A DNA stretch of 64,000 nucleotides from an uncultured marine group III euryarchaeote (GTDB lineage Archaea > Thermoplasmatota > Poseidoniia > MGIII > CG-Epi1): assembly GCA_902533295.1 (NCBI GenBank), contig CACALG010000001.1, positions 19,048 through 83,047 on the forward strand, in the 5' to 3' direction. The notes beneath the pieces are model-generated. The model had not been told where the DNA came from. It ran no database searches and worked only from the letters and a program-made list of their open reading frames with translations. The translations under genes were made by a program, and so were the position numbers. Below, in pieces: positions 8,113 to 53,778 of this stretch (its first letter is position 1; the number at the start of each line of letters is the position of its first letter).

Positions 8113-8114
8113 AT

Positions 8115-8357
8115 CTAGTTTTTCCTCCTTTTTGCAGATAAGGAAATAATCGCAAATGATATAAGATAATATATTAGAGCAAATACAAGTATTGTATTAC
8201 CGTAATCGAATCCTAATTTTGCGTATTCTCTTAGTATAGGTATGTACATTAAATGGGATGAAAATAAAAGCAAAATAAAAGTAAAGATATTAAATTTAAT
8301 AGATGCAAATAGAGTTCTGGAGGCCAATGGTGTTGAATCTTCCACTGATAACGCCAT
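8115..8357 (-). CDS. small hypothetical membrane protein
   Basis: 80-aa ORF with 2 predicted TM helices; start overlaps the upstream ORF stop. Confidence 0.3.
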   Translation of the reverse strand: MALSVEDSTPLASRTLFASIKFNIFTFILLLFSSHLMYIPILREYAKLGFDYGNTILVFALIYYLISFAIISLSAKRRKN

Positions 8358-9151: not shown

Positions 9152-9163
9152 AGAAATACAAGT

Positions 9164-9191
9164 AAGAGGTAGATATTACAATCTACCTCTT
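9164..9191 (-). terminator. perfect 11-bp hairpin (AAGAGGTAGAT/ATCTACCTCTT) between the 16S 3' end and the next gene; flanked by A/T-rich sequence
   Basis: Inverted repeat seen directly; could be a 16S terminator or part of the downstream gene's promoter region. Confidence 0.25.
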
Positions 9192-9240
9192 ATTTTTATT
9201 CGAAATCAATTTAGCGCTAGGCAGCCAACCCTAAATCTTA

Positions 9241-10707
<1,467 letters not shown>

Positions 10708-19900: not shown

Positions 19901-22128
19901 TGTGTATTATTCGTTAATATATTATTTGAAATTCTTCCTTCACTATTATTTGCAGTTATAGCTATTTCCGAAAAATTAATAATATTGTCTTCTAAGTCAA
20001 AATCTGCAAGAACGACAGTTATAGATTCTCTAAAATTCGTTATTATATTATCACTAACTTCGACTTCACCTTCCTGCGAAAAAATACCTACTGCAGCAAC
20101 TTTTTGTAAATAAAGAACATCACATCTATCATGTGTGCATAATCCGGTTACATTATTATTAACTATTTTACTATATGTCCTGTTACTAAGAATACCATAA
20201 TCATTTACATGCAATATATTATCTTCAATAAGTATAGGAAACGTACTATCCTCAAATCCTCCTACTTCGATACCCACTGCCGAACTTAATGTATTATTTT
20301 TAATTATAGTTTTTGGAATATAATATGCATAAATTCCTGATAATTGTGATTCAGGACTCATGTTTGTTTGAACTGTATTATTTGCAATATATCCTTCTTC
20401 AACATCTCTGAACATTATGCCAGCACCATCGATAGAATGAACAAGATTATTTGTTACATGTATATTATCAATTGTAAATGCTGAACCAAACTGAGTATAT
20501 GCAGATATTCCATTATATTTTATATTTTTGAGTGTGTTATTAGCGACAATACCATTTGATATGTCGCCAAAACCATTATCATATATCCAAATTCCTATAG
20601 ACGCATTATCAATATAATTATCCACTATAGTAAAATTTTTGTAGAAATTCCAAACCGTTATTGCTCTTGCTGATGTATTAGTAATATAATTTGAAATTAT
20701 ATGATTATCAGTTCCTACATCATTATATACATTTTCAAAATCAAGCGCTATTGGAAAGTCATTATCATTGATGGTATTATTTATTATATAATTTCCAGAA
20801 GGTGATATACCTCCTTCAGGCCAACCCCAAAGTCCTATAGCTTGCCATCCTATTTCAAAATTATTATTTCTTATAGTATTATTGTTCTGAAATGAATTAA
20901 TAAAAATAGCAATTGTGTAATTTTCAAAGTAATTATTTTCGATTAAATGACCTCCACCATAATATTCATCTGTATCAAAATCCCAGAACCAGAAAATCAT
21001 ACAACTATGCCCCCAATAGGGTTGTTTAGACCCGCAATTTATGAATGTATTATTACTGTATTCATTTCTATTTCCTGCACGATCCATAAGATTGTGCCAA
21101 TATACGCCAGAAACATTGAATATGTTGCGGCTAATTATATTGTCATCTGTAGCTTGTAGAGACATATCATGTATTGTATTATTTAGAAATTGGTTATCAA
21201 TTATTGTATGATTACTGCCTTGAGTTATAGTAAGCGTACCTCTGCCTCCCTGTCCATTATCCTTGTAAATATAATCTCTAAAGATGTTACCACTAATTAG
21301 ATTATAATTCCCATAGGAAATAGTTACACCTAATGTACCGTTAATGAAAGTATTATTTTGTATTAAGGCGTTCTCTCCTGAGACAAACAAGTCATAGAAT
21401 ATGTAACTATTATAAATCGTGTTATTAATAAATCTAAAATTATCAGTATAAGCACTAATTATTCCAATCATATCAAATGTGGAATTAGTTATGTAAGATC
21501 CAGCTCCAGTAAATCTTAATGCCTTTACATACTCAAAATCAGAATTCTCAATAATTACCCTAGTATTAGGAATTCCTGAGCCTGGCTGATTATTTACTAA
21601 TCTGCCTACTTGAACAGTATAATCTAACCTCTCTGTGTAATTCCCTTTACCAATTATATTAGATTTAATAACGGAACGATCATTACTAGTTGTCGGATTC
21701 AAATCATAATCTGTAACAATTAGTACAGAATTCTCATTTAAATCAAGACAATTAGCAGTTATTTCACTATTCTTTTGAATAGAATCAAGTATTAATTCAG
21801 AATTAATTATGGTCAGTGTACTGTATAATGATATATTGTCACCATGTGAATCTTGTTCATGAAATACTGTAGAATTAATCCATCTGGTTTCTCCTCTAAT
21901 TTCAATGAAACCTTTTGATGATAGAGAAACGTTTTCAAGTTTCAAAGTCTTACCAAAATTAACGACAATATCTTTGACTGAGACGTCCTCATCCCAAACA
22001 TGCGTGTCTTGAGTGATAATCCAATCCTGACCCTCTTGGGGTGCATTTCCATTTGAACCTGCTGAAGCATTTCCAGTACTGATTACTATCGCAGTAATTG
22101 CGATTAAAAGAAATGCTGTTTTCTTCAT
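16966..22128 (-). CDS. giant secreted surface protein (1720 aa) with parallel beta-helix repeats, a C-terminal TM anchor and a cytoplasmic Roadblock/LC7-like domain
   Basis: Signal peptide; long run of N-rich beta-helix-like repeats (NNT..N..I); TM ILPATIGISLLFLMFGGVLLY near residue 1350; C-terminal ~130 aa homologous to ORF 1..477. Confidence 0.6.
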   Translation of the reverse strand: MKKTAFLLIAITAIVISTGNASAGSNGNAPQEGQDWIITQDTHVWDEDVSVKDIVVNFGKTLKLENVSLSSKGFIEIRGETRWINSTVFHEQDSHGDNISLYSTLTIINSELILDSIQKNSEITANCLDLNENSVLIVTDYDLNPTTSNDRSVIKSNIIGKGNYTERLDYTVQVGRLVNNQPGSGIPNTRVIIENSDFEYVKALRFTGAGSYITNSTFDMIGIISAYTDNFRFINNTIYNSYIFYDLFVSGENALIQNNTFINGTLGVTISYGNYNLISGNIFRDYIYKDNGQGGRGTLTITQGSNHTIIDNQFLNNTIHDMSLQATDDNIISRNIFNVSGVYWHNLMDRAGNRNEYSNNTFINCGSKQPYWGHSCMIFWFWDFDTDEYYGGGHLIENNYFENYTIAIFINSFQNNNTIRNNNFEIGWQAIGLWGWPEGGISPSGNYIINNTINDNDFPIALDFENVYNDVGTDNHIISNYITNTSARAITVWNFYKNFTIVDNYIDNASIGIWIYDNGFGDISNGIVANNTLKNIKYNGISAYTQFGSAFTIDNIHVTNNLVHSIDGAGIMFRDVEEGYIANNTVQTNMSPESQLSGIYAYYIPKTIIKNNTLSSAVGIEVGGFEDSTFPILIEDNILHVNDYGILSNRTYSKIVNNNVTGLCTHDRCDVLYLQKVAAVGIFSQEGEVEVSDNIITNFRESITVVLADFDLEDNIINFSEIAITANNSEGRISNNILTNNTQSVSSYRSDINILNNVFNDFEKAIYSFNSTISIDNNIFSEGDFCLDLIDSDSTLQNNDFNCRDTDYLIRYNLQINIADERGTGSREHGFDIENSFGSKLVDSQTDNYGFSDYYMINVISKAADQNEINYNPIRIIYYNNDIMVEIYKNLSYNHTLLALLDTTSPQSEIIPGTGLINSESIELQISLLNDDNDFKEYIIEYIVNDKFAQWEEYGTFTESIVLFTGEDGKEYRFRSLARDIYGNTENKNNYEYQVKIDTSIPSTELLNFEEDYYFIGNSQIDLSWKNSADDIAYNTLEVSYSNFTNANLDPNSVTWTALDSINIYGDTHYIYEFDELGHYAFKILASDYAGNSEDKEEYDIIMNYASKVDTISFSNVPQKWGYDYLEIFIDTDNLNLDYKIYIAIQTIEKGNDLLTWYLLPHDISDDKIKLQDLQDNTRYFLYAESRDLAGNLENPLDTTEYFSSNGQYDQSFNLKYIPAINDIHWFNVSVDNDLDGIYEKALVRGMNKNKLLVDEYYLDIINKTIQFGGTSNGGFVPTEDITGNNNIKIDYSGVHLTFEVFTEDPQKATNVAISHTNATELVLGFVIPEDAAICKVQMVADELPASDSGWFTQEIIGVGMETSCKQGYYEWIHKNPSPDRDYFYRITIEDEFGHISNSNNETVSMEEVVKLYSSSGTETDQFGMKEILPATIGISLLFLMFGGVLLYRSRKEELDENVSIIESKPIAKYKVEELYLIYKDGRLLRNVSAVEVKTDTDIMSGMLTAINDFVQDSFQTEGDLGSIDYGNNKIILQRGEHSYLAAVIYGEIDNMFKGKLINAVRAIETINPTLANWNGDAESVKQVKIYLNPIIDETIASTREMVDNYFTEKEIVITSSYEKLGTNITLNVNLSNYSSETISSCKISPEFNSSILGLVGIDPDVYYSFSDNSFIVGDISSYNEVQFKLKMQQKSNAATSVEIKMMYEQKDREGLTNSRVDIA

Positions 22129-35872: not shown

Positions 35873-38437
35873 CTAATCCTTTTCCTTTCCACCCTGCTGA
35901 ATTATTTCACCAGTTTGTGAATCATAAGTATTACCAGTTACTGGATCATATCTAAAACCAGATTGTTTACTTGGAATCTGATTAGTGGAAGAAGTACCTG
36001 TATCATAATCATCAAAATAATCACCACCATCACCTAAGCGACTGTAAGCAAATATTCCAAGGCCTGCAACAGTTAAAACACCTAATGGAATCCAAATCAA
36101 AGGTTGATTAATTAATGAATCTTCTTCTTCTTCTTCCACCTCAATAATTTCTATCTCTTCCTCTACAGCAACCGTAACTTCTGCGGAAACGCGATTATCT
36201 AATTCATTAAACTCATCAATTATATTATCAGGATCAATCACTGCTTCGATGTAATAAAGTCCAGGTTCAGTGGGTTTCCAATAGAAAACTCTCACTTCCT
36301 CACCATTGACACGTCCCAAAGGTTTTGTTTGATATATATCAACTAATTCACCATCAATAAAGAGAGAAATTTCAGCTCCAATACACTCTTCTGAAGAGTT
36401 ATCAAAAGAAATACCAAATGGACATTCACAACAAATTTCAGGACCGAAATTTATAGCACTAATTTCTATCTCCAAAGTTTGATTCAAATATATCATACTT
36501 GGAATGTCTCCCATCTCGACAGATAATTGGAAATTTCGTGGTTTAACATTGATTGATAAATTTATTTTATTATCTGTTAAATTCAAATCTTCAAAGTCGC
36601 TGTTTGTTATCACTGCCTCTATTGTAATATTGTGAAGACCATCCATTGTTGTTGTCCTCCAGAAGACAGTTACAAATCGAATTTCTTCATAAGCTAAATT
36701 TTCTTGGGGAACATTGTAGATTGCATTACCTTCAAAATCATAAGTCTGTACTTCAGGTGAAGTGGAATTATCCAAGTAAACCAATAAATGGAATGATGGA
36801 ATTTTAGCCATATTATTCCTTACCTGAACAACCATTTCAACATTATCTCCACGAAATACAGTATCAACAGCATCAACAGATACTAAGGTCAAATCATAGT
36901 CCGGAGCGGCTACGTTGATTAGCATAGATTTTACATTATTAGAATCATCTAATTCTTCAATCTCCTTCGCTGAATCTGCATGCCCTGCTACGCTTGGTTG
37001 CTGCTCATCCCAAGTATATTCACCCGTAATATTGTAAAATTCCCCTTCATTCAAATTTAGAATCCAAGAATCAATAACTTCTCCATCAATTCTCAACTCA
37101 ATAGGGCAATTAGTGATATCCTGTGCTCCTTTGTTAAAGGCTGTAATTATTATATCCGAAGGCATACCTCTAACAGCTTGACCTACTACTGAAATCTCAT
37201 GGATGGTGATATCTGGTTTAGATTCTAGAACGACTAAGCTAAAAGTAAAATTATTATCTTCTTCATCCCATTCTTCAATTTCATTCAAAGGGTCAATTCT
37301 TATAATAATTGTATGGTTACCGATAATCTCTGTACCAGAACCTGCATCCCATGTTACAGTAGCTGGTTCAGTTGCAGATACTATCTCTTCTCCTACCCTT
37401 GTAGCATTATCCATATTACTAATGATACTATAACCAATTAGTGACTCAGCACCTCCCTCTGGTATATCATAAAACCCTACACGTACATTCTCAGCTCCAA
37501 CAACATAATCATCATTAAAAATATGAACTGTTAATTTAACAGAATGTTGGTCAAATACATCTTCCAACCAAGTGTCATCAGGATTTATTGTAATATTACG
37601 AGATTCATCTAAGGTTAACTCAGGTGTGTGTGCTCTGACTTGAACTGTAGCCTCATAAGTGTTGTCATCTTCCACAAATTCATCAATATCGTCATCAGAA
37701 TCTAGAACAATCGTAATCGTAAATTCTCCTATTCCATCAGGTTGCCATGTTATATTGTACTGACCAGAATCACCAGCCCCAATTATAGTTCTAACTTGGG
37801 GATTAGAAATTGTATTTGTTTGACCATCAAGTGTTTGACGAAATTCAATATTGAAATTTGTACAATCATCACGGCCATTATTATCAAAAAGAACTAAAAT
37901 ATCAACTGAATCTCCCTCTGCGGGATTTTCAGGTGTAAACATGATATTCAATTCCGCAGGTAGTGGTCTAAGATTTGCTAGAGGACCAGGAGGCACAGGA
38001 TATATGGTATATTCATATACGATTTTGTTATTATCTTCATCTGTTTCAATAATCTCGTCATCATAGTCCACAGAGATAGTCAAGACACGATCGCCAAATC
38101 CGCCGCACTCACTTGCACCACAAGTAATATCAATTATCGCAATCCTTTCATTACCAATAACTGGCTCAGTTTGTTCATGGATAGGAATACATTCATCTTC
38201 TGGATCACATTCAGAGGTACTATTCCATACAATAATTTTTACATCAGTAGCAGGATTTATAGGATCATGATTGACAACTTCGAAATATATTTCTAATTCT
38301 TCTCCTTGAAGAGGAAAATCTGGTGAAAACGTAAAATTAACTGGTTCTAGGTCTATAGCTTCGGCATCTCCTGTAAATAAGAACAGAACCAATACAGCCC
38401 CAAAAACGGTCACAATTGCACTCGTCAACCTTTTCAT
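35873..38437 (-). CDS. secreted surface protein (854 aa) with CARDB/Ig-like repeats, a C-terminal TM anchor and a short cytoplasmic tail
   Basis: Signal peptide; repeated acidic beta-rich modules; TM PLIWIPLGVLTVAGLGIFAY near C-terminus. Confidence 0.5.
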   Translation of the reverse strand: MKRLTSAIVTVFGAVLVLFLFTGDAEAIDLEPVNFTFSPDFPLQGEELEIYFEVVNHDPINPATDVKIIVWNSTSECDPEDECIPIHEQTEPVIGNERIAIIDITCGASECGGFGDRVLTISVDYDDEIIETDEDNNKIVYEYTIYPVPPGPLANLRPLPAELNIMFTPENPAEGDSVDILVLFDNNGRDDCTNFNIEFRQTLDGQTNTISNPQVRTIIGAGDSGQYNITWQPDGIGEFTITIVLDSDDDIDEFVEDDNTYEATVQVRAHTPELTLDESRNITINPDDTWLEDVFDQHSVKLTVHIFNDDYVVGAENVRVGFYDIPEGGAESLIGYSIISNMDNATRVGEEIVSATEPATVTWDAGSGTEIIGNHTIIIRIDPLNEIEEWDEEDNNFTFSLVVLESKPDITIHEISVVGQAVRGMPSDIIITAFNKGAQDITNCPIELRIDGEVIDSWILNLNEGEFYNITGEYTWDEQQPSVAGHADSAKEIEELDDSNNVKSMLINVAAPDYDLTLVSVDAVDTVFRGDNVEMVVQVRNNMAKIPSFHLLVYLDNSTSPEVQTYDFEGNAIYNVPQENLAYEEIRFVTVFWRTTTMDGLHNITIEAVITNSDFEDLNLTDNKINLSINVKPRNFQLSVEMGDIPSMIYLNQTLEIEISAINFGPEICCECPFGISFDNSSEECIGAEISLFIDGELVDIYQTKPLGRVNGEEVRVFYWKPTEPGLYYIEAVIDPDNIIDEFNELDNRVSAEVTVAVEEEIEIIEVEEEEEDSLINQPLIWIPLGVLTVAGLGIFAYSRLGDGGDYFDDYDTGTSSTNQIPSKQSGFRYDPVTGNTYDSQTGEIIQQGGKEKD

Positions 38438-42238: not shown

Positions 42239-44332
42239 CTAATTTTCTTTATCATCACTCATTTTTTTTCTGAGCTGTTCAACAGAAACCGAAATTTTCT
42301 TTTCAGGAATGGATTCTGCGCCTTGGGTAAATTCTTCAACCTCTTCAACTTCCTCATTAAAATCACCAACGTCTTCAATATCTGATGAATCATCATCAAA
42401 AACTTCAACCGCTGACTCAGCGACATCCTCTTCTCCAATATTTTTAGAAATAGCATAATCTCCATCACTACCTTGTCCCACAGCAATATCCCCGCTTTCG
42501 ATATCCTCTGCCAATTGCATGCGCTTTTCTGAACTAGCATCATCCACTATTTCCTCTAACAATTCCTCTGGTGAAAGCTCCTCCTCCACTTCTGGAAATT
42601 CCTCATCTTCTGTCTCAATAAGTTCATCTAAATCTAATTCAACTTCCTCATTATACAAGAATTCTGGCATTTCAGGAGCTACCGCACCTGGTGTAGCTAT
42701 TGCATCATAAAATTCAAAAGCCGTCCTCTCAACCTCTTCCACAAATTCTTCTAAATCTTCTTCCCCTATTCTAGAATAGATAGTAGCCATTCTATCTGCA
42801 ATGAATGCAAAGTAATTCGGTGCAACTTCAAATGCTTTTTCAGTCCATGTAAATGGAATCCATGCCATAACTTGCTTATTTTTAGGATCTACTGTTATTT
42901 TTAATTGAGGACCAGGATAAATTATACCACCGCAGGAAACATCATAATTATTCATATATGCTAAAACTTTGTACACATCTTCTTGTTTTGGTGTTTCAGT
43001 TAAATTATATTTGGCCTCAAAATAGAAATTGACTTTCTTATAATTCATGAAAATTTCAGGCCTTCCTGAACCCTGAACAGGATTGGTCTTAGTGTCTGAT
43101 TCAGCAAAAAGTGAACCCATTATTGAATCGCTCCAGCCTTGCCTTACTTGTTCTGGTGCATCATATTTCAATACTACATCTTTATTTTTAGATCTAAACT
43201 CACGAAGTGATTTAGCATGTGCACTTAATTTTAATCCTGATGCCATCTCACAGAGAATCCATAGAGCATAAATATCTGTCATCTTTTGTGTCTGTACAAG
43301 TACTGTTTCTTCATAATATGATTGGTACTCATCTAAAAACTCTCTCCACAAAGGGGGCAATTCTCTGTAAGAACGATTTCTACTCCAAGTTTTAGCTTCG
43401 ATAAGTGCTTCTCTATTAATTAAACGCTGCTCTTTACGAGTAGCCTTAGCAGTAGGTATTAATTCTGCTAATTTCCCATCACCTAAGACCTGTTTATGGA
43501 ATTTACATGCCATATCTAACTTATCCAATTGCTCCTTAACTGAATCATTAGGGGGCTGATATTCTTTGCCATAAATTGCAGACCAAGCTTTCTTTTCCCT
43601 TTCTCTTCTATCCATTTCATCTCTAAAAAAGATAGCTTCAATGAAAACTTCCATATGGAATTTTACAAGAAGGATGTTAGTGGGTGTACTCCATCTCCTC
43701 TTTCGGATATCTGTTACATGAGCAGTAGCATATTCTGTACCTTTTTGAGCACGAGCAAGAGCCGTTTTTTGCCACCTTACTGCACCCCTTATCTGGGATT
43801 TCATAGTCTTTCTTTCAACTTCTACTTTGTAAGTGTAAGCTCCTTTTCGGATATCATTTGTAACTTTCAACAATTTTCCAGAAAATTCTAATAATTGTTC
43901 AATATTAAGTAATATTTTCTCCTCTTCAATTGATGATGTCCCACCAGGATACATGTCTTCGGGCGGATCATCGGCTCCAGAATTCTTAACCAAATCAGGA
44001 ATATGAACATCTCGTAATTCTTTGAAGCTCTCATAATCTAACATCTTAGGAGCTATCACAACTTCTAGCTTGTTTGAAACCGAACTTCCATCTTTACTGT
44101 GCAAACTTATAGTGTTAGTTCCAATATAGTCTGGCACTACAAACTGTAGAGAATGTGTTGTATTTGATCTAACTGGAGGTAATGAATCAACTTTAGCACT
44201 ACCTACTCTGATATGCACATCTTCTAATGCCTTGAAAGCATTAACATTCAACATAACTGATTCACCCTCAGTCAAATTCTCAGAATGACCCTCTGGTAAT
44301 CTGAGATCTATAGTTGCATCTGGTAAACTCAT
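42239..44332 (-). CDS. McrC-like PD-(D/E)xK nuclease-family protein with a long acidic C-terminal tail
   Basis: Candidate catalytic motif RPEIFMNYKKVNFYFEAKY (E-x13-E-A-K-Y, cf. E. coli McrC D-x12-DAKY); start 1 nt after the stop of the upstream McrB-like gene; last ~170 aa about 40% Asp/Glu. Confidence 0.5.
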   Translation of the reverse strand: MSLPDATIDLRLPEGHSENLTEGESVMLNVNAFKALEDVHIRVGSAKVDSLPPVRSNTTHSLQFVVPDYIGTNTISLHSKDGSSVSNKLEVVIAPKMLDYESFKELRDVHIPDLVKNSGADDPPEDMYPGGTSSIEEEKILLNIEQLLEFSGKLLKVTNDIRKGAYTYKVEVERKTMKSQIRGAVRWQKTALARAQKGTEYATAHVTDIRKRRWSTPTNILLVKFHMEVFIEAIFFRDEMDRREREKKAWSAIYGKEYQPPNDSVKEQLDKLDMACKFHKQVLGDGKLAELIPTAKATRKEQRLINREALIEAKTWSRNRSYRELPPLWREFLDEYQSYYEETVLVQTQKMTDIYALWILCEMASGLKLSAHAKSLREFRSKNKDVVLKYDAPEQVRQGWSDSIMGSLFAESDTKTNPVQGSGRPEIFMNYKKVNFYFEAKYNLTETPKQEDVYKVLAYMNNYDVSCGGIIYPGPQLKITVDPKNKQVMAWIPFTWTEKAFEVAPNYFAFIADRMATIYSRIGEEDLEEFVEEVERTAFEFYDAIATPGAVAPEMPEFLYNEEVELDLDELIETEDEEFPEVEEELSPEELLEEIVDDASSEKRMQLAEDIESGDIAVGQGSDGDYAISKNIGEEDVAESAVEVFDDDSSDIEDVGDFNEEVEEVEEFTQGAESIPEKKISVSVEQLRKKMSDDKEN

Positions 44333-44333
44333 A

Positions 44334-47243
44334 TCAACCGAATACGCTTAAACCTGGTGAATCAACCATTTTCTCTAAGGTATTGCTTATGCCGTGGTCT
44401 TGACCAAGAACTTCTTGAGCTTTTAGCATTAAACATTTTAGCTCATTTCTTTCCAATCCTTCCAATGCAGGCATTATATTGGATTTAATTACATCCTCTA
44501 ATGCTCTATCTAAATCATATTGCCCTCGAGAATTAAAGACAGTCAACATTGAATCTATAATTACTGCAGGACCAATCTTTCTATAAGTTCTAACACCTCT
44601 TGCAATTTCATCATCTCTAGATTGAGGTAACTCTTCTTCCTCCAAGAAATTCATAAATTTATTGAATGCTTTGAACATTGTCCCATCATCATCATAAAAG
44701 TCAAACATTTCTTTGGCATACCAATCCTCCTCTTCACTGTCCTCAGGCCTATCAGGTGCAATTCCCAACTTATTCAGTTTATTGAACACAAATATAGGCA
44801 TACGTCTGTACTCATCATCTCTATCAGGAAGACCAATTTCAACGAAAGCAAATCTTCTCATTAAAGCGTGACCCACATTGAAAAGAGTATTCTTATCTTG
44901 AGTATTCATAGTTCCAATTATTCTGAATTCTGGTGGCATCATAAACGGAGCCCCGCCAGTCTCTTTTGCTGTAAGAAGTGCTTGCTTGTCCCTGTACTCA
45001 AACACCGTAAATAATTTACCAAAAGCTTCATCGATATTTGCTCTATTAAACTCATCGATTACTAAATAATGAGGTTTGCCATCCTCTTGCATTGTTTTTT
45101 CACAACTCTTTGCAGCATCTGCAACATAACCATCTTTGAAAAAATAACCTCCTGAATCATCTGGTGAGATACCACCAATAACTTCGAAATTAGACCATTC
45201 TGCATTTGCAGTTACAATGGTGTAATTAGGAATAGGACTGCCGTCTTTTCCCTCTTTGACTCCACATATTTGACTCAGCAAAAGATTAGCTAATGCTGTT
45301 TTACCAGTACCTGGATCTCCATACAACATTATGTTTCTACCAGATTTAAGGTGTGTTACTGTCTGATTAATAGTATCTTCAGTCGTTGAATAATATTTTG
45401 ATAATTCTTCATAGTCAACATTGTAATCGACTTTCATTGCTTTTCGAATCTTTGGAGATTCAGCTAATTCTTCTTTCAAATCCTTTTCTAAATCATCTAA
45501 GTGAGAAAGATCAGCTCCATAATTTTCATCCTCTGTTGGCTTGATGTCTATTGTTGCTTCAGGAAATTCTGAAAGAAGCCTATCCATTGCATCTTCTAAA
45601 CTAATTTCTTTAGGTGTTGATGATGATGGAGTTTCGTCAGATTTTGGCCCATCTTCTGCCTCAAAAGAAGAATCGAAGGGATCTGAGGAAGGGGGACTAG
45701 ATAATTGCATTTCCATCATTTTATCTCTGAATTTCTCTGCACCAAATTGCCAACCATACCATATAGCACCTCCAGAAACTATGAGTGGAATTAGAAACAT
45801 AGCCCATTCTTCACTCGATTCAGGAGATGAAATATCTGAACCTGAAAGTAAAGCAGGAGCAATCATTGTTGCGAATAAAGTGCCTATTCCTGCTACAAAT
45901 AATCCAAAATAAGCAAACCCTTCCATGCTTTCTTCGGATTTCCTTTTCCGGTAAAATAAGAATACACCCAAAAATGTAATAACCATAAACAAAACAGTAA
46001 GAATCCAGTCTCCCTGTTCAAAATAAAAATTAGCCCCATTACGTAATAAATTCCATAACAATACAATGTACTGGAATCCAAGACCAAACAATATGAAGAA
46101 GAAATATTTTGCTTCTTCCATATCTTTCAAACGAATTGTTTGAAGAATATAGGCTGCAATACCTATCAAAAGAGCTAAAACACCAAGCATTAAAACTAGC
46201 ATTTCACCCGCTTGAAGATTAAGCATCACTGTTGCAGTTCCCATTGGTGGGTCTGCGGATGCACAAGCAGATTGAAGATCTGGGATTGTACTATCGTATG
46301 ATCCAACTGCGTCACATGAAGCCCATGGTCCACGCACCCAATTATGGTGTATAGATCCAAATACTAATGAACCGGCTCCCACAAAGGAATAAATTGTACT
46401 CAGTGGAGCCTCTCCAATGTCTTTTCCAGTTACTGCATACAAAAATACGATATAAGATACAATAATTATTATTAGAGAAGACGTCGCTCCTAGAGATGAA
46501 TAAAATCCATCTAGTGCACCTTTTGGATATGTCTCATTAATGAATGACTCACCTTCTGTAAGCTTTTCATCATTTGCGCTAGAATATCCACCGCCTACAT
46601 AAACATAAATAATAAGCATCACAAAAACACACAGAATTAATGGAGCCATGATATTACTATCATTAATCCGTCTTGCTTGTATCATAATTAATAGAGCAAG
46701 GAGCGTAAGCAAACCAAAAACAGACTGAAATTGATGAGTATCTACTTTGAAATCGGATGTATCAAAATTATCTCCTTCACCGACACGACCCCCCGGTCCA
46801 TTATTCAAAACCAACGGACATCCATCTTTATCTCCACGAACATCTATATCCGACCAACCTGGACACACAAGTGGGTTATTATCATCAGTCCAACCAAGTA
46901 AAGTCAACTGCGCTTTTTCTTCATCAGTTAACTCTTGTTCTATCTCGCTATTTGACTCTGGAGCCTCATCATTGTAATGTGGGATGTCTCCTGTTGTATA
47001 ATACAAAATCAAACCTAAGAGGGCAACAGCAATCAAAAATTGTAAAGCTGGCAAGTAAAAACTAGGTTTAGTTTTGATTAAAGGTGGTTTAGAAGTTGCA
47101 GCAGGCTTACCTTCAGATTTAGAAACTGGTGTCTCCACTTGAGAAGGACCTGAATCCTTAGCTCCAGACAGATTTACACCGCAAATATTACAGAATGGTG
47201 CATTATCTTCAACATCTACAGCACAGACTGGGCACTTTTTCAT
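44334..47243 (-). CDS. McrB-family AAA+ GTPase fused to an N-terminal zinc ribbon and a polytopic (~9 TM) membrane domain
   Basis: N-terminal CPVC...CNIC zinc ribbon; multiple hydrophobic helices across residues ~60-580; C-terminal AAA+ domain with Walker A LYGDPGTGKT and McrB-signature motifs VIDEFNRANIDEAFGKLF and IIGTMNTQDKN...ALMRRFAFVEI (cf. E. coli McrB IDEINRAN, IGLMNTADRS, ALRRRF). Confidence 0.65.
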   Translation of the reverse strand: MKKCPVCAVDVEDNAPFCNICGVNLSGAKDSGPSQVETPVSKSEGKPAATSKPPLIKTKPSFYLPALQFLIAVALLGLILYYTTGDIPHYNDEAPESNSEIEQELTDEEKAQLTLLGWTDDNNPLVCPGWSDIDVRGDKDGCPLVLNNGPGGRVGEGDNFDTSDFKVDTHQFQSVFGLLTLLALLIMIQARRINDSNIMAPLILCVFVMLIIYVYVGGGYSSANDEKLTEGESFINETYPKGALDGFYSSLGATSSLIIIIVSYIVFLYAVTGKDIGEAPLSTIYSFVGAGSLVFGSIHHNWVRGPWASCDAVGSYDSTIPDLQSACASADPPMGTATVMLNLQAGEMLVLMLGVLALLIGIAAYILQTIRLKDMEEAKYFFFILFGLGFQYIVLLWNLLRNGANFYFEQGDWILTVLFMVITFLGVFLFYRKRKSEESMEGFAYFGLFVAGIGTLFATMIAPALLSGSDISSPESSEEWAMFLIPLIVSGGAIWYGWQFGAEKFRDKMMEMQLSSPPSSDPFDSSFEAEDGPKSDETPSSSTPKEISLEDAMDRLLSEFPEATIDIKPTEDENYGADLSHLDDLEKDLKEELAESPKIRKAMKVDYNVDYEELSKYYSTTEDTINQTVTHLKSGRNIMLYGDPGTGKTALANLLLSQICGVKEGKDGSPIPNYTIVTANAEWSNFEVIGGISPDDSGGYFFKDGYVADAAKSCEKTMQEDGKPHYLVIDEFNRANIDEAFGKLFTVFEYRDKQALLTAKETGGAPFMMPPEFRIIGTMNTQDKNTLFNVGHALMRRFAFVEIGLPDRDDEYRRMPIFVFNKLNKLGIAPDRPEDSEEEDWYAKEMFDFYDDDGTMFKAFNKFMNFLEEEELPQSRDDEIARGVRTYRKIGPAVIIDSMLTVFNSRGQYDLDRALEDVIKSNIMPALEGLERNELKCLMLKAQEVLGQDHGISNTLEKMVDSPGLSVFG

Positions 47244-47282
47244 TAATGGACAGTTAAGAGTATTGGTTAAAAGCTTTTGATT

Positions 47283-47972
47283 ATGGCAAACGTTCTTAAC
47301 AACCTTTTCAATGCGAAAATAATGTCTAATGATTTAATGACTCTAAGAGATTTAAGAGTCCAAACTTTAAAGGAAAGAAGAGAAGGAAGATTAACCAAAC
47401 TTCCCTCTCATTTCTACAGAAGAGTATACCAATTAGAAGCAAATATTAGGATGTTTATAGAGGATTCAAAAGATAACCCACAAAAACTTGGGAAGGCAAA
47501 CGCAGATGTAAGGAAATTTTTAGACATGAAATTAGAATTACACAAACATAGGGAAAGAAAGTTGACAGATTTAGCCAGAGAACGGATCAATGGCCAGAAT
47601 CCTAATACAGATAATGTTCACAAAAATGAACAGGAATATCTCACATCACTCTGCGAAGTTATTGAAAATCATAGAAAGAAAACACTTCTGAGTAAAGATA
47701 ATGGAGAAAGTGAAGAACCGGAAATTAAAGAAACAAAACTCGAAGAAAAAGTAGAAGAAGAAATTATCGAAGAAGAACCTGTAGAAGAAAAGAAAGAAAT
47801 CGCAGACGAATATATAGAAGTAGAAGTTCTTGAAGATTTACCTACATTTACAGGAATGGATGCAAAAAATTATACTTTAAAAAATAACAAAAAAGAAATT
47901 ATTCCAATATACAATGCCAAGATATTGAGTGATGCAGGAAAAGTAAAAATTATTACTGAGGTGAAGGCCTGA
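47283..47972 (+). CDS. GINS complex subunit, Gins51 (Psf1-like) candidate
   Basis: N-terminal helical A-domain pattern (LRDL..ERREGRLTKLPSHFYRRV) and C-terminal B-domain-like segment (VLEDLPTFTGMDAKNYTLKNNKKEIIPIYNAKILSDAGKV); ATG at 47283 preferred over the in-frame TTG at 47277. Confidence 0.4.
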   Translation: MANVLNNLFNAKIMSNDLMTLRDLRVQTLKERREGRLTKLPSHFYRRVYQLEANIRMFIEDSKDNPQKLGKANADVRKFLDMKLELHKHRERKLTDLARERINGQNPNTDNVHKNEQEYLTSLCEVIENHRKKTLLSKDNGESEEPEIKETKLEEKVEEEIIEEEPVEEKKEIADEYIEVEVLEDLPTFTGMDAKNYTLKNNKKEIIPIYNAKILSDAGKVKIITEVKA

Positions 47973-49472: not shown

Positions 49473-50205
49473 ATGGCATTACTAGAAGTTAAAGAGCTAA
49501 AAAGAGGCTTTGGATCCAAGACCTTTGGCACTCGAATTGAGGTTCTTAAGGGCGTTAATTTAGAAATAAAAAAGGGTGAACTAGTTGCGTTAATGGGACC
49601 GTCTGGATGTGGAAAATCTACCTTATTGAATATAATTGGAGGATTGCTAAAAGGAGATTCCGGAAAAATAAGTATTACTTCTCAAGAAAATAATTATAAT
49701 TATGGAACTAAGAATCCTAATCGTGTTGTAGATGTAAGAAGAAATGGTGTAGGATGGATATTTCAAGATTTTCACTTAATCGAACATTTAACTGCTATAG
49801 ACAACGTTGCATTATCACTTGAAATTTCAGGATTAACGGAGAGAGAAGCTGAGGAAAAAGCTAGATTAGCACTTACTAAAGTTGGTCTCAGGGATAGGAT
49901 AGACTTTGGTGTAGAGCAACTTTCAGGAGGTCAACGTCAACGAGTTGCTGTTGCAAGAGCTATTGCTGGTTCTAGACCGCTACTATTAGCAGACGAGCCA
50001 ACGGGAAATCTAGATATTGAGAGCGGAAATGATGTCATAAAATTGTTTAAGATGCTTACAAAATCTGAAAAAACCAATCTCAGTACTAATGGTTACACAT
50101 GATCCTAATCTAGCCAGTCAAGCCGATCGTATGTTATTGTTAAAAGACGGACTTGTGGCTGCGAGTGATATAAAATCTGCATGGGGAATAGGAGGAAAGA
50201 AATGA
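49473..50205 (+). pseudogene. ABC transporter ATP-binding protein (LolD/MacB-type) interrupted by a +1 frameshift at an A6 run (50068..50073)
   Basis: Walker A GPSGCGKST, signature LSGGQRQRVA and Walker B LLLADEPT lie in frame 0. The H-loop segment LMVTHDPNLASQADRMLLLKDG continues in frame +1 after the A-run; deleting one A restores a ~245-aa protein ending TGA 50203-50205. Confidence 0.6.
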
Positions 50206-51734
50206 AGAAAAGAATAATAAAATGGAAAAATAAATTCCGAGATCTTCCTGATAATTTAAGAATAGCTGGCCTTAGTTCATGGCGTGACAAGGAAAGAGGA
50301 TTAGCTGTATTCGCAGGAGTTTTCCTCGCAAGTTTAGTAATTACTTTAGTATTAGTATACGGAGTTGGGCTTTCACAAGCTTTCTTAGAAGAATCATTAG
50401 AACAAACAGTTTTTGATTCAAAAATAGAATTTAAAAATGCTCCAGCTCAGGGTTCTACTGGATGGACAAACAACACTACTATTTTACAAAATATGTGTGA
50501 TGAAGTTACACTAAAGGAAGAATTTAGTGATTGCACAGTAATATTGGGTAAAAGTGGGATACATAGTGAGTTGAGCTTTTCTAATGATGCTGCATTTTAC
50601 GCATCTCCACTCTTTTTGAAGGAAATCGAATCTTCTGATAATGACAGAGACTGGGATCAAGAGGATTTATGGGATTATGAATACACGACAGGACCTCCTG
50701 TTGTAAACATAAGAGCTATTTCATTTTTGGGCCCTGAAGCTTTTGATGGTGAAATCTCAGAACGCTTATCTAAAAAAACATAATTTATGAAATGGGCGAA
50801 TGGAAAACTCATGAAGAGGTCCATGCTGAAAGAGGCATATACATTCCATTAGATATTGCATCTACTACTGGTGCGGAAGTAGGAGATAAAATAGAACATC
50901 TAACATTTACTTACACTTCTGAAAGAAGCCTTCCAGGAGGGATGTCTGAAGAAGATTGTGCTGGTGAGATAATTGAAGGTGAAGAATTCAGGCTTATGTA
51001 TTGCCAAATTCCCCTAACTCTTGATAATGTCACAATTCTAGGAATATATGAACCATGGCCACAAGGTAATCCAGTTCTTGCTGCTAATCCTATATACACA
51101 ACATGGACTATACTTGATGAAAAGCAGCAAACTACTCTGATTGATAATGACCATGTATACCTTGGTGTAACTGTAGATCGCACTCTATTACCAACATCAT
51201 CTATCTCAGCTGCAGAAGATTGGTTAGAAATTGTTGCAAATGATATGCAAAAAACAAACTTACGATGATGGAAATGTAAAGATATTCTATGTAGATATAA
51301 TAAGTAGCAGTATTTTGTGGCTTGAATTTTTCCTTGGATTCGTTCAAGTATTCGATTATATTTTAATGATACCTGTGGTTATTCTTTCCCTATACTTACT
51401 AATTTATGGACTAGAACTTTCATTAGAACAAAGAAGAAGAGAAATAAGTATTCATAGAGCCATTGGTGCAACAGCAGAAAAACTTAAGGGAATGGTTCTC
51501 TTTGAACTGTTTATAATCTCTACAGTTGCTTGGTTAGGTGGATATTTGCTTGCCCTTATTGCAGTTCCTTTTGTCCTATCTATTGTTGGTTTTATGGAAT
51601 TTGAGGCATTGGAAATCGATGTTAATCCAAGTCTGAGCTTTGGCGCTACATTCTTCACCATTCTTACCACCCTGGGATTAGCTTTAATTTTCGGTAATTC
51701 TCGCACGAAAAGCTTCCTAGAGATGGAAAATTGA
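50202..51734 (+). pseudogene. MacB/FtsX-type ABC transporter permease split across three frames by frameshifts at A7 (50772..50778) and A6 (51249..51254) runs
   Basis: The pieces 50202..50783 (TM1 + periplasmic domain), 50792..51268 (periplasmic domain) and 51231..51734 (FtsX TM2-4 with EISIHRAIGAT) are contiguous in sequence logic. A one-A change at each homopolymer joins them into a single ~500-aa permease. Confidence 0.5.
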
Positions 51735-51780
51735 TGAGGGGGTCAGAAAGACAAAGGAGACAGGTAAACCAAGAGTTTGG

Positions 51781-53778
51781 TTGCATTGGACTATGTTTGG
51801 CATAGGAGCCATAGGTGCAATAGATACTTGGCAAGAATTGAATACAACCGGTGAAGGAATAATAACCAACTGGTTTGTAGGTGGCTTAATTAATATTTTT
51901 GGACCTTTCTTATTATGGATAGGTGGGGCTTTGTTGCTTTCAAGATTAGGTGCAGCCGGACCTTCTATAATGCTTAAATTCTTCAGAAAAACCCCATTGC
52001 TTTCTGATGTAAAGAGAGGTCTTGAATCGACTGGAACAAGTGAATCTACAGGTAGACTATCAACAATTATGCTATTGACATTATCAATAGTAACTCTCGC
52101 AGCCGTACAAGGATATACAGGTTCTCTTGTCGATGAAAGAACAGCGGATTTAGATATTGGTAGCGACATCAAAGTTTATGCTGTTGAACCAATGACTTCA
52201 ATTGAAGTAGAACAAGCAATCACTAATATCAGCTCTAAAGACCTTACTGTAAATGCAGTAAATGTACCGATTATTCCCTTGATATCTGAGGATGGGACGG
52301 ACGTTAATGCATATGTACTAATGAATGAAAGTACCGAGATACTCAAATGGTTTCCTCAAGCCGTTCCTGGAAAAGATATTTCTGAAGCAATGATTGCATA
52401 CAAAGATGGAGGATTCACAGCAGGCGAAGATATAGCATTTACATTGGATTTATGGGGTTCTGGCCGTTACGGTGATTCAGAAGACATATTACTAGATAAA
52501 AGCAATAAGAACTCAGAAAATTTGAATTTAACATGGGAAGAAACTATTGTTACCTTTACAGGTGAGGAAAATGAAGAACTAGATCCAATGATGGCGATAG
52601 TGTTGTATACTGGGTTCATGGAAAAGAATTGGTCAAATATTGACCTATCTAACCAGGATATAAGCAGCCGGAATTTTACACAAACTGACTTTTCGAATAC
52701 AAATTTATCTGGTGCCAATTTAGCTAATTCAGATTTATCAGAATCGATATTCTTCAACGTTGATCTAAGGGGTGCTAATCTAACTGGTGCAAATCTAAAC
52801 AATACTGTATTTGTGATACAACCACAAAACATTGTCGGTGCAAACTTTACAGGTGCAAATCTGAGAGGGGCCTTTGAATATACTGGATTTGTTAATTTGT
52901 CAAACGAGGAAATAAGTGGTGCTATTTGCCCTGATGGAACTATACAAACTAATGATAATAATTGTTCCACTGGATTTAGTACAATACCTCCCCCCTTACT
53001 GGCACCTTTCTTTATTCCTGCAACAGTTGAATTTGAAGTGATTCCACATGAAACAACTATACGATACATTGGAGTTCATGAATTCATTCCTGGTGTTGCT
53101 ACAAATGACATGAATAATTATTTAGTAATAAATGAGCTAGCATATAGAGAATTACGAGGAAATCAATTCGTTGATAGTGAAACTTCAACTACTTGGATTG
53201 TAGATATAGATGGGCTCAATAATGATGAATTACAAGTATTGGCCCTGCTAATAGCTGCAGATTCTCGTTTTGAAAGTGCCGATGATTGGGAAACATCACA
53301 TGAAAATGTTGAGAGAAATGGAGGAATTATATTCGGAACACAGGGTCTTTTCACACTACAATATCTTGTTGCAAGTGTTGCTGCAATAGCCTCATCATTT
53401 GTTTTCTTATCATTAGTTTTAAATCAAAAGAAGAAAGAATTGGCTATTTTACAAGCAATAGGAGCTAGTCCAAATCAGATTATCAGACTCGTTTTATTCG
53501 AGATTCTATCTATAGTATTTGTTTCTATGATTTTAGGAGTTATACTCGGTATTGGTTTGGCTTTATCCTTTAACGGACTGTTTGATATCTTTGGATTCTT
53601 ATTCCAGTTGTTTTCTGGAACTGGAGAATCATCAGTAATTACAAGAGTACTACAGTGGCCTTGGTGGGTTATAATCAAGGTCACATTAGGTGTACTATCT
53701 GTGGTTGTCTTGGCTTTAATTATGACCACCAGAAGGGCATTACGTGCCGATTTAGCCGTTGTTTTAAAGGGAGAATAA
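51781..53778 (+). CDS. FtsX-family ABC transporter permease with a large extracytoplasmic domain containing pentapeptide repeats
   Basis: TM1 RLSTIMLLTLSIVTLAAV; extracytoplasmic A(N/D)LxG pentapeptide tract (FSNTNLSGANLANSDLSESIFFNVDLRGANLTGANLNNTVF...GANFTGANLRGAF); C-terminal FtsX domain ELAILQAIGASPNQII + 3 TM. TTG start; could be fused to the upstream permease via a further frameshift near 51725. Confidence 0.55.
   Translation: MHWTMFGIGAIGAIDTWQELNTTGEGIITNWFVGGLINIFGPFLLWIGGALLLSRLGAAGPSIMLKFFRKTPLLSDVKRGLESTGTSESTGRLSTIMLLTLSIVTLAAVQGYTGSLVDERTADLDIGSDIKVYAVEPMTSIEVEQAITNISSKDLTVNAVNVPIIPLISEDGTDVNAYVLMNESTEILKWFPQAVPGKDISEAMIAYKDGGFTAGEDIAFTLDLWGSGRYGDSEDILLDKSNKNSENLNLTWEETIVTFTGEENEELDPMMAIVLYTGFMEKNWSNIDLSNQDISSRNFTQTDFSNTNLSGANLANSDLSESIFFNVDLRGANLTGANLNNTVFVIQPQNIVGANFTGANLRGAFEYTGFVNLSNEEISGAICPDGTIQTNDNNCSTGFSTIPPPLLAPFFIPATVEFEVIPHETTIRYIGVHEFIPGVATNDMNNYLVINELAYRELRGNQFVDSETSTTWIVDIDGLNNDELQVLALLIAADSRFESADDWETSHENVERNGGIIFGTQGLFTLQYLVASVAAIASSFVFLSLVLNQKKKELAILQAIGASPNQIIRLVLFEILSIVFVSMILGVILGIGLALSFNGLFDIFGFLFQLFSGTGESSVITRVLQWPWWVIIKVTLGVLSVVVLALIMTTRRALRADLAVVLKGE

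Follow-up and report, generated by a model that had tools for sequence, protein, structure and literature searches.

McrBC is the textbook example of a motor-driven, modification-dependent restriction enzyme, and its known diversity consists of swapped soluble nucleic-acid reader domains. Here we describe a related pair of genes, p1 and p2, from a marine group III euryarchaeote (MGIII); to our knowledge, the MGIII archaea are uncultured. The pair lies on contig CACALG010000001.1 of assembly GCA_902533295.1. The coordinates below refer to the window, by which we mean the whole stretch of 64,000 nucleotides that was analyzed (positions 19,048 to 83,047 of the contig). p1 (44334..47243, including the stop codon) encodes a predicted membrane-integral AAA+ NTPase of the McrB family, with 969 amino acids, and p2 (42239..44332, including the stop codon) encodes a McrC-like partner of 697 amino acids, as judged from its homologs and from an AlphaFold2 (AF2) model. 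Both genes, and all of their features given below, are on the minus strand. We propose that p1 and p2 form a derived two-subunit machine of the McrBC type that sits in the cytoplasmic membrane and has a lineage-wide role in handling DNA there, rather than being a mobile restriction cassette. (We put the probability of this reading at roughly 0.6.) The identity of the pair as McrBC-like is considerably more secure than the reading as a whole.

The closest described systems are the McrBC complexes of Escherichia coli and Thermococcus gammatolerans (PDB:6HZ4, 6UT6, 6UT5, and 6UT7). As in p1-p2, the genes are adjacent, with the motor before the nuclease. Niu et al. defined the catalytic elements of McrB structurally (PMC7680126). 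An MNxxDR[ST] loop takes the place of sensor I and contributes a catalytic asparagine and a catalytic aspartate, and a pair of arginines acts in trans (R348/R349 in E. coli McrB and R425/R426 in T. gammatolerans McrB). The arginine of the loop also makes a trans contact in both proteins (PMC7680126). Like these McrB proteins, p1 has the Walker A and B motifs, an NxxD loop in the place of sensor I, and the paired trans arginines. Similarly, p2 has a scaffold and a C-terminal PD-(D/E)xK domain as in McrC, along with a putative finger; its triad of two acidic residues and a lysine has the same x12 spacing. But p1 has a zinc ribbon and about 10 transmembrane (TM) helices instead of the DNA-reader domain, and its loop has K-N instead of R-S/T. 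The triad of p2 is E/E/K instead of D/D/K, and only transitive searches or fold comparisons reveal its similarity to McrC. p2 is also twice as long as its E. coli counterpart; it starts with an Ig-like domain and ends in about 150 amino acids of acidic tail. Finally, p1-p2 appears to be fixed across an archaeal lineage, while the McrBC of E. coli and T. gammatolerans is patchy in its distribution.

Other derivatives of McrBC are known as well. A census by Bell et al. covered about 34,000 McrBC systems and found many domain swaps (PMC11090510). The CoCoNuT and CoCoPALM systems in that study are, like p1-p2, McrBC derivatives with swapped or added domains, and their McrC homologs have an Ig-like beta-sandwich. 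However, these systems are hosted by bacteria (in archaea, the CoCoNuT branches hardly occur) and are marked by an NxD motif and by extensive coiled coils. p1 has no coiled coil, and its motif is NxxD, which Bell et al. treat as another class of consensus loop (PMC11090510). CoCoPALM has a fusion of its McrB GTPase to an FtsB-like domain, which contains a single TM helix and a coiled coil (Bell et al. 2024, PMC11090510). So, membrane-associated homologs of McrB are not unprecedented, but the anchor of CoCoPALM is a single TM helix, while p1 has a predicted polytopic domain. The relatives of the LlaJI, LlaI, and BsuMI type (YdiS/YdjA) also combine an AAA_5 motor with a McrC-like nuclease subunit. 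These are sequence-specific three-gene systems, in which a dedicated subunit binds the DNA and cognate methyltransferases are included; p1-p2 has no such components. An earlier note on this DNA, which was made from the sequence without database searches, stated that its author was not aware of any membrane-integral McrB. In full-text searches of the literature, we found neither a polytopic-membrane McrB nor McrBC in MGIII described, but the statement needs qualifying, as the single-helix fusion of CoCoPALM had already been described.

We compared the AAA+ core of p1 (residues 603-810; 44814..45437, delimited by alignment to E. coli McrB) to known families. Residues 637-798 match AAA_5 from Pfam (E = 1e-18). 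A search of PDB sequences with p1 found five distinct sequences, all of which are McrB from E. coli or T. gammatolerans (E = 4e-17 to 2e-15). Compared to McrB from E. coli K-12, p1 is 32% identical across 186 amino acids (BLASTP, E = 8e-21). In NCBIfam, McrB is the top model for p1 (61.5 bits, across the AAA+ core only) and GvpN is second (30.4 bits). Given these rankings, p1 appears to fall nearer to McrB than to the other clades of AAA_5 (MoxR, GvpN, NorQ, and dynein). The McrB model is an equivalog with a cutoff of 637 bits (PRK11331), which p1 does not reach; p1 is a divergent member of the McrB family with a different N-terminus and is no equivalog of E. coli McrB. In PADLOC, p1 has weak AAA-type matches only (REase_II at E = 2e-6, mad8, and IetA). 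The best of these, REase_II, may represent the LlaJI/LlaI/BsuMI type. Among the automated names of the homologs of p1, one is "McrB" and two, from the Joint Genome Institute (JGI), are "ABC-type multidrug transport system fused ATPase/permease".

The motifs of p1 point to McrB as well. Walker A (GDPGTGKT) and Walker B (VIDEFNRAN) align to GPPGVGKT and IIDEINRAN of E. coli McrB. The loop in the place of sensor I is MNTQDKN, in which M, N, and D are invariant across the homologs; this puts p1 in the NxxD class. Relative to MNxxDR[ST], the loop has K for R, which is a conservative change, and N for S/T, and the catalytic N and D are kept. ALMRRF aligns to ALRRRF of McrB, and both of the paired arginines are invariant. 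Overall, the Walker motifs, MNT(Q/K)DKN, and ALMRRF are invariant or nearly so across 72 homologs. The earlier note had placed the ATPase with McrB on the strength of four motifs (LYGDPGTGKT, VIDEFNRANIDEAFGKLF, IIGTMNTQDKN, and ALMRRFAFVEI). All four are present, and the assignment to the McrB clade, rather than to MoxR or GvpN, holds up: besides the loop and the pair of arginines, the PDB matches are only to McrB, and the NCBIfam scores are 61 versus 30 bits. The core is followed by a conserved C-terminal region (residues 811-969; 44337..44813), comprising the lid and an extension that ends in SPGLSVFG, which we delimited by column conservation. Among representatives of p1, conservation is 94% for columns in the AAA+ core, 86% in the C-terminal region, and 72% in the linker that precedes the core.

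The N-terminal half of p1 is where it departs from McrB. p1 begins with a Cys4 zinc ribbon (residues 1-25; 47169..47243), which is predicted to be cytoplasmic. This was identified from a weak match to Zn_Ribbon_1 in Pfam and from its cysteines (C4, C7, C18, and C21), which are kept in 68/68 of the homologs that cover the N-terminus. The zinc ribbon is followed by a predicted polytopic membrane domain (residues 61-499; 45747..47063), which we delimited by Kyte-Doolittle (KD) hydropathy and by the positive-inside pattern of loop charges. The predicted TM helices are at residues 61-82, 172-192, 197-217, 251-272, 279-300, 347-368, 380-400, 412-431, 444-466, and 479-499. Eight of these segments are strong and two are weaker, and a homolog from a sister lineage of MGIII (45% identical; locus L042) has ten clear peaks. 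The basic residues are in the short "in" loops (ARR, K, RLK..K, and RKRK), and the large "out" loops are acidic. The predicted topology of ten helices with both termini inside is self-consistent; with this topology, the zinc ribbon and the NTPase would both be cytoplasmic. The CxxC...CxxC zinc ribbon and the membrane domain had both been read from the sequence in the earlier note; both stand, except that its count of about nine TM helices becomes 10 by hydropathy.

We found no Pfam family for the membrane domain. Across the N-terminal 600 amino acids of p1, we detected the weak zinc-ribbon match and the TM segments only, and no domain for reading nucleic acids (modified bases). Between the tenth helix and the AAA+ core there is an acidic linker of about 100 amino acids (residues 500-602; 45438..45746), identified by its content of aspartate and glutamate (29% D/E across residues 520-620).

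Two of the "out" loops of p1 are large, acidic, and predicted to be extracytoplasmic (residues 83-171 and 301-346; window 46731-46997 and 46206-46343). Each has one pair of cysteines (C127/C142 and C310/C327), which are kept in every homolog that aligns there. Otherwise, these loops evolve much faster than the rest of the protein. Compared to the three closest genomes (L039, L027, and L006), p1 is 97-98% identical in the AAA+ domain, 92-94% in the C-terminal region, and 90% in TM6-10, but only 40-42% in loop 1 and 46-50% in loop 3. In loop 1, the rate of nonsynonymous substitutions (dN) is 0.42-0.62; for the AAA+ domain, it is about 0.03 (~0.027). Where the ratio to the synonymous rate (dN/dS) can be estimated for the external loops, it is below 1, but dS is saturated (the proportion of synonymous differences, pS, is 0.5-0.85). 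Since synonymous sites are saturated, the contrast in dN is the usable signal, and positive selection in the loops cannot be claimed. The cytoplasmic machinery of p1 is strongly constrained, and the divergence of the surface loops reflects either a relaxation of constraint or diversification.

We then turned to p2. Profile searches with p2 came up empty (for example, there is no match to McrBC (PF10117) or DUF2357 from Pfam at E ≤ 1), so its homology to McrC was reached transitively and by fold. An exhaustive search of 1.84 billion representatives (clustered at 50% identity) with a profile of the p2 family found only 37 relatives. These are from MGIII, one sister lineage (P0216), archaea of the Thermoplasmata (about 545 amino acids), and bacteria of the Chloroflexota (about 500 amino acids). 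Seven of the Chloroflexota members match the nuclease end of Pfam's McrBC (E = 2e-5 to 8e-4), and several match PDDEXK_7. The McrBC scores of the distant relatives are 18.8-24.3 bits, with a cutoff of 23.9, and cover the last 60-135 positions of the profile only. P0250 passes the gathering score for McrBC (24.3 vs. 23.9), and P0233 passes for PDDEXK_7 (23.9 vs. 22.1). In the family alignment, the McrBC and PDDEXK_7 matches map to residues ~420-475 of p2.

The predicted structure of p2 also points to McrC. An earlier AlphaFold model of the full-length protein, from a shallow alignment of MGIII sequences only, had a predicted local distance difference test (pLDDT) of 53, with values under 50 in the nuclease region, and was kept out of the fold search. 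The model that we used covers residues 1-560 and was built with a diverse alignment (A4); it has a pLDDT of 84.4 and a predicted TM-score of 0.76. When this model was compared to the PDB with Foldseek, chains of McrC ranked 1-3 (6hz4_M, with E = 1.2e-7, 6ut7_G, and 6ut6_G), and YdjA of BsuMI was fourth. The alignments to McrC have 429-497 columns, cover most of each McrC chain (336-414 residues), and have a probability of 1.00. The TM-scores are 0.2-0.3, which are low because the domains are arranged differently. In a profile alignment with hhalign, residues 424-508 of the p2 family are placed on residues 242-347 of E. coli McrC, and E426, E439, and K441 on D244, D257, and K259. So, three independent lines (transitive sequence homology, fold, and the register of the active site) place p2 with McrC. 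In particular, the partner of p1 has a nuclease fold, as the earlier note had proposed.

The model of p2 has an N-terminal beta-sandwich (residues 1-95; 44048..44332; Ig-like or scaffold), a finger-like, helical region (residues 96-340; 43313..44047; from the secondary structure of the model and from Foldseek), a domain with the PD-(D/E)xK nuclease fold (residues 341-520; 42773..43312), and then two further helices. The finger-like region has a three-stranded stalk (residues 133-142, 169-178, and 204-213) and helical bundles. It also contains the most conserved motif of the family, IRGAVRWQKT (residues 181-190). G183, T190, and N219 are invariant throughout the family; within MGIII, the same holds for R182, R186, and K189. 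By analogy with McrC, this region would be the finger that contacts McrB.

The C-terminal 168 amino acids of p2 are 35% D/E, in agreement with the acidic C-terminus of ~170 amino acids in the earlier note. The tail proper (residues 547-697; 42242..42694) is predicted to be disordered. In the full-length model it has pLDDT under 50 and a short terminal helix (residues 684-696). The motif at the very end (KKISVSVEQLRKKMSDDKEN) is conserved, and the middle of the tail is variable. By eye, there is no motif resembling a PIP box in the tail. The relatives of p2 in Thermoplasmata and Chloroflexota lack the tail, while it is present in the sister lineage (L042) whose p1 is also fused to TM helices.

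Is p2 likely to be an active nuclease? The putative catalytic motif is E426-x12-E439-A-K441 (PEIFMNYKKVNFYFEAK; 43010..43057), as judged by its alignment with D244/D257/K259 of McrC. The PD-(D/E)xK motif that had been read from the sequence is there (PEIFMNYKKVNFYFEAKY), but with a spacing of E-x12-E-A-K, not x13; this is identical to the spacing in E. coli McrC (D244-x12-D257-A-K259). E362, E426, E439, Y442, and K455 are invariant in 138/138 homologs from MGIII. K441 is a lysine in 129/138 of these (93%); it is Q in 8/138 and R in 1/138, and these replacements mark a sub-lineage of MGIII. A glutamine occupies the position of the catalytic lysine in BglII, which is an active enzyme and thus a precedent for the Q variant. 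Within p2, dN is lowest in the nuclease domain (0.036-0.065). We conclude that the p2 of the window plausibly has an active site. We also considered that the nuclease might be dead in MGIII, but for the p2 of the window this is not supported, given that E426 and E439 never vary and that 129/138 homologs keep K441.

Outside of MGIII, the active site varies. The Chloroflexota members of the family have a canonical RPD...LDVKY motif. (As a side observation, the canonical PD...DxK is kept in the Chloroflexota proteins P0229-P0250. At the one such locus that was inspected, L044, where the gene is at 8001-9560, there is no AAA_5 gene within 8 kb. The Chloroflexota members may be stand-alone McrC-like nucleases.) In contrast, the catalytic lysine is lost in 6/6 representatives from Thermoplasmata, and two of these also lack the preceding acidic residue. 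(The corresponding motifs are D-A-D-Y, D-T-Y-Y, D-T-I-Y, E-P-N-Y, I-T-L-Y, and N-S-H-Y.) Yet p2-like genes from Thermoplasmata that lack the lysine are still paired with an AAA+ motor, which implies that the pairing outlasts the loss of catalysis. For CoCoNuT systems, McrC homologs whose PD-(D/E)xK domain is inactivated have been documented (PMC11090510).

In the MGIII loci that were recovered, the two genes are found together wherever both are covered. p1 has 75 full-length homologs (53-91% identical) and p2 has full-length homologs in 161 clusters (53-100% identical), all from marine metagenomes. A scan with one genome per GTDB species yielded 34 loci, all from MGIII-type metagenome-assembled genomes (MAGs). 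In every one of the 34 that reaches far enough upstream, p1 is directly before p2, and no more than a few nucleotides separate them. In the window, the junction reads ...GGT TGA t ATG..., so the open reading frames are exactly as the earlier note had drawn them, on the minus strand and with 1 nucleotide between the stop of p1 and the start of p2. The full-length homologs, at 45-95% identity, together with a dN of about 0.03 in the cytoplasmic domains despite saturated synonymous divergence, show that p1 and p2 are real genes and not chance open reading frames.

The genomic location of the pair is fixed among these loci as well. Wherever the contig reaches, tblastn finds the same order: orf237, endA, a GINS-like gene, then divergently p1, p2, and gap, and then ApbA, THUMP, ADSL, and CARDB genes. 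Between the window and the deepest lineage of MGIII, identity is 52% for p1 and 55% for p2, as compared to 47% for gap, 62% for ADSL, 40% for the GINS-like gene, and 26-32% for endA. Among the 34 loci, there is no patchy, island-associated, or mobile distribution. We saw no integrase or transposase near the pair by inspecting open reading frames and Pfam matches, and a scan with p1 found no relatives in viral contigs. The GC content of the p1-p2 region is 0.36, which is unremarkable, as it is the same as in the rest of the window. On this evidence, the pair appears to be vertically inherited and fixed in MGIII, unlike a mobile defense island. Of the housekeeping neighbors that the earlier note had named, two are confirmed, as gap matches Gp_dh_C (E = 1e-17) and endA matches tRNA_int_endo (E = 1.5e-25); the GINS-like gene (47277-47972, plus strand) has only a sub-threshold match to Sld5 (18.1 bits, with a cutoff of 22.3).

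We also looked for related pairs outside of MGIII, and the nearest is in the sister lineage. At L042, a protein of 909 amino acids with a zinc ribbon, 10 TM helices, and AAA_5 is followed, after a gap of 63 nucleotides, by a p2-like protein of 886 amino acids with a long tail. This pair also adjoins endA and the GINS-like gene. More distant pairs are found in lineages of the Thermoplasmata type. At L047 and L049, a protein of 1015-1090 amino acids is encoded directly upstream of the p2-like gene, and its AAA+ module is 46% identical to residues 603-969 of p1. The protein at L047 has the architecture TPR-EVE-AAA_5-AAA_5; the one at L049 matches TPR and AAA_5 in Pfam and has two AAA_5-like regions according to BLAST. 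At L040, another TPR-EVE-AAA_5-AAA_5 protein, whose EVE domain passes the Pfam gathering score (25.3 vs. 23), is encoded 1.8 kb upstream of the p2-like gene, with a Bro-N-like gene and a SIR2_2 gene in between. At L048 (8072-12329), a double zinc-ribbon protein of 137 amino acids, an AAA_5 protein of 462 amino acids (55% identical to residues 602-969 of p1), and the p2-like protein are encoded in a row, followed by a cysteine-rich protein of 217 amino acids with many CxxC repeats. This row is surrounded by genes for RNA polymerase, SRP54, and ribosomal proteins. The zinc-ribbon protein shares the pattern CPxC...CxxCGV with the ribbon of p1. Because the zinc ribbon is a separate protein at L048, its association with this subfamily of McrB predates the fusion to the membrane domain.

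Overall, the C-terminal module of p1 is 46-55% identical to the AAA_5 proteins of L040, L047, L048, and L049. The partners in these Thermoplasmata pairs belong with p2 in one rare family (E = 1e-48 to 1e-95), and the pairs, like p1-p2, lie in housekeeping neighborhoods. They differ in lacking the membrane domain, and have either TPR, EVE, and a degenerate first AAA+ domain or else no fused domain; in that their partner has neither the catalytic lysine nor an acidic tail; and, for one lineage, in an adjacent SIR2_2 gene. We did not find any description of the Thermoplasmata pairs, whether with TPR-EVE-AAA_5-AAA_5 or with the zinc ribbon, in the literature that was searched. Among the distant archaeal relatives with readable neighborhoods, an AAA_5 gene is beside or near the partner in 4/6. 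The close homologs are always linked in the loci that cover both genes.

As a side observation, L040 (2866-9728) and L041, from one lineage of the Thermoplasmata type, have a cluster with SIR2_2, a p2-like protein with D-A-D-Y, and, at L040, a Bro-N-like protein of 96 amino acids. This cluster looks like a defense locus, and SIR2 might replace the inactive nuclease as the effector.

What do these relatives suggest about the origin of p1-p2? EVE-McrB is the commonest EVE-containing architecture in defense and is a standard design for type IV restriction (PMC7641849). The simplest account starts from an EVE-type McrBC module of Thermoplasmatota, which would have lost its base reader in the stem of MGIII and acquired a membrane domain along with the zinc ribbon. 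At this stage, p2 would have kept its catalytic triad and gained its acidic tail.

Some other features of the window deserve mention. Between the start of p1 and the divergent GINS-like gene there is a gap of about 33-39 nucleotides. (The listed TTG start of the GINS-like gene is probably wrong, as there is an ATG 6 nucleotides downstream.) An A/T-rich, TATA-like element (GCTTTTAA; 47267..47274) was read from the sequence about 27 nucleotides 5' of the ATG of p1, and it is a possible promoter. The pair may be co-transcribed with gap. Further along, the CARDB-domain protein (35873-38437, minus strand; 854 amino acids) is acidic, has a signal-like segment at its N-terminus and a TM segment at its C-terminus, and is 40-76% identical across loci. 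It is probably a cell-surface protein and part of the conserved MGIII neighborhood. On the other side, beyond endA and orf237 (49473-53778, plus strand), are the ATPase of an ABC transporter and a large FtsX-family permease, and several frameshifts interrupt these genes (from frame 3 to 1 in the ATPase; from frame 3 to 2, back to 3, and then to 1 in the permease). The aligned parts of these genes are in a single frame in L006, L027, and L039, and the permease of L004 is a single gene of 1247 amino acids. The split genes are either pseudogenes or the result of assembly or sequencing errors; p1 and p2 are intact. Elsewhere, the window contains a tRNA (4529-4602, plus strand) and a complete archaeal 16S rRNA gene (9240-10707, minus strand; 1504 bits), which accounts for a peak in GC content at 8-12 kb. 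We did not detect a 23S gene in the window. Beside the 16S gene are two very large open reading frames on the minus strand (10990-16197, 1735 amino acids, and 16966-22128, 1720 amino acids), and the second of these is in the part of the window with the lowest GC content (0.29-0.30).

How might p1 and p2 work together? By analogy with McrBC from E. coli and T. gammatolerans, six AAA+ domains of p1, each on its flexible linker of ~100 amino acids, would form a ring under the membrane. The finger of p2 would insert into this ring and would stimulate NTP hydrolysis via a basic residue that acts on the N/D loop. NTP turnover would drive the engagement of the substrate, and the nuclease of p2 would then cleave the nucleic acid. 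Because a membrane domain has replaced the base reader, the targeting would be by location or by a signal at the envelope, or possibly by the zinc ribbon, and not by base modification. And because the pair appears to be fixed and vertically inherited in MGIII, we favor a conserved role across the lineage over a mobile restriction cassette. This role could be either a domesticated cellular function or a fixed, entry-point immunity.

Several observations weigh against this proposal. The consensus loop of p1 is MNxxDKN instead of MNxxDR[ST]. The TM topology was predicted from hydropathy and loop charges, and the hydropathy is weak for two segments out of ten (mean KD of 0.9). p2 has no significant match in Pfam, NCBIfam, PADLOC, or the sequences in the PDB, whether as a single sequence or as family profiles (A1 and A3). 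Its structural matches have global TM-scores of just 0.2-0.3 and a large root-mean-square deviation, and the hhalign match of its family to the single McrC sequence is weak (E = 0.009, probability 4.6%). The replacement of the lysine by Q or R in 9/138 homologs from MGIII, along with its loss in Thermoplasmata, implies that nuclease activity may not be the conserved function. The available flanks of the p2-like gene contain no AAA_5 gene at the archaeal loci L043 and L045, nor at the bacterial locus L044. The canonical tetradecamer, in which a McrC dimer bridges two rings, is hard to fit if both rings are anchored in one membrane, unless the long linkers of p1 allow this. And the "core gene" status of the pair is extrapolated from those loci that were recovered.

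Several alternatives need to be weighed against our proposal. The pair could be a fixed defense system that acts by type IV-like restriction or by abortive infection: the loops of p1 would sense the attachment of a virus or the entry of DNA, and either p2 would destroy the DNA at the site of entry or the ten-helix domain would disrupt the membrane. The whole family derives from McrBC-type systems, and its nearest relatives carry EVE readers, with SIR2_2 beside the p2-like gene in L040 and L041 and a Bro-N-like gene in L040, which are domains that are common in defense loci. The E-E-K triad in 129/138 homologs from MGIII would suit a nuclease effector, and external loops that are 40-50% identical, as compared to 97% for the AAA+ domain, are expected for a surface that faces viruses (although loop dN/dS is below 1 where it can be estimated from saturated dS). 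But a defense system would not be expected to occupy one housekeeping locus in every recovered locus, with no island, no mobile genes, no copy on a viral contig, and a normal GC content, nor to be conserved as well as or better than its housekeeping neighbors across the deepest split in MGIII. The pair has no modification reader, and no McrBC-type model in PADLOC matched it (p2 has no PADLOC match at all). We consider fixed defense to be possible but somewhat unlikely. A more specific proposal, which we offer tentatively and think unlikely, is that an EVE-type McrBC was turned into a permanent motor-nuclease in the membrane, a gatekeeper for the entire lineage. A ring of p1, with about 60 TM helices and with its fast-evolving loops exposed to the outside, would couple an event at the surface (such as the docking of a virus or the entry or uptake of DNA) to NTP-driven capture of DNA and its cleavage by p2 on the cytoplasmic side.

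Another alternative is that p1 is a membrane-bound AAA+ remodeller that works independently of the nuclease, with p2 as a regulator or adaptor that plugs the ring and with a membrane-associated protein or nucleoprotein as the substrate. This would explain why all six Thermoplasmata representatives lost the lysine and are still paired with intact AAA_5 genes, why the lysine is Q or R in a sub-lineage of MGIII, and why the most conserved motif of p2 is in the finger region and not in the nuclease; inactivated PD-(D/E)xK domains are known in McrC homologs (PMC11090510). But E426, E439, Y442, and K455 are invariant in MGIII, K441 is retained in 93% of the homologs, and no part of p2 has a lower dN than its nuclease domain (0.036-0.065), so we think that a remodeller is improbable. 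Finally, p1 might be a generic AAA_5 chaperone of the MoxR or GvpN type, or the ATPase of a transporter that was misannotated, and its adjacency to p2 might be incidental. GvpN is the second match in NCBIfam (30 bits), two of the JGI names are for ABC transporters, and the McrB score of 61.5 is far under the equivalog cutoff of 637. However, p1 hits only McrB in the PDB, has the NxxD loop and the pair of arginines that are hallmarks of McrB, and lacks a VWA partner, gas-vesicle genes, or an ABC signature. Furthermore, its partner is structurally McrC, and the two are adjacent in every recovered locus that covers both genes, again in L042 (with a gap of 63 nucleotides), and again in Thermoplasmata. 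Given the ranking of the PDB and NCBIfam matches, the McrB-specific motifs, and the McrC-like partner, we rejected both a MoxR/GvpN-type chaperone and an ABC transporter; this explanation is almost certainly wrong.

Returning to the McrBC-type machine that we propose, if the mechanism suggested by homology is correct, then a McrB-type ring can be operated from a membrane. The pair would also be a testable candidate for the handling of DNA at the envelope of MGIII, whether in virus exclusion, DNA uptake, or transactions between the chromosome and the membrane. If the more specific idea of a lineage-wide gatekeeper is correct, then no McrBC with a polytopic membrane domain would precede p1-p2, which would also clearly exemplify a defense module that became fixed as a core gene. 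The p2 family is a rare family of partners that is missed by current profile libraries. The MGIII are widespread marine archaea. Both the architecture of the pair and its apparent fixation across the lineage would surprise a specialist. If the mechanism suggested by homology holds, p1-p2 also gives, together with the relatives from Thermoplasmata, a stepwise series, from an EVE reader with a lysine-less nuclease, to a zinc ribbon only, to a zinc ribbon and membrane domain with the triad retained. This series should be useful for understanding how defense modules become domesticated.

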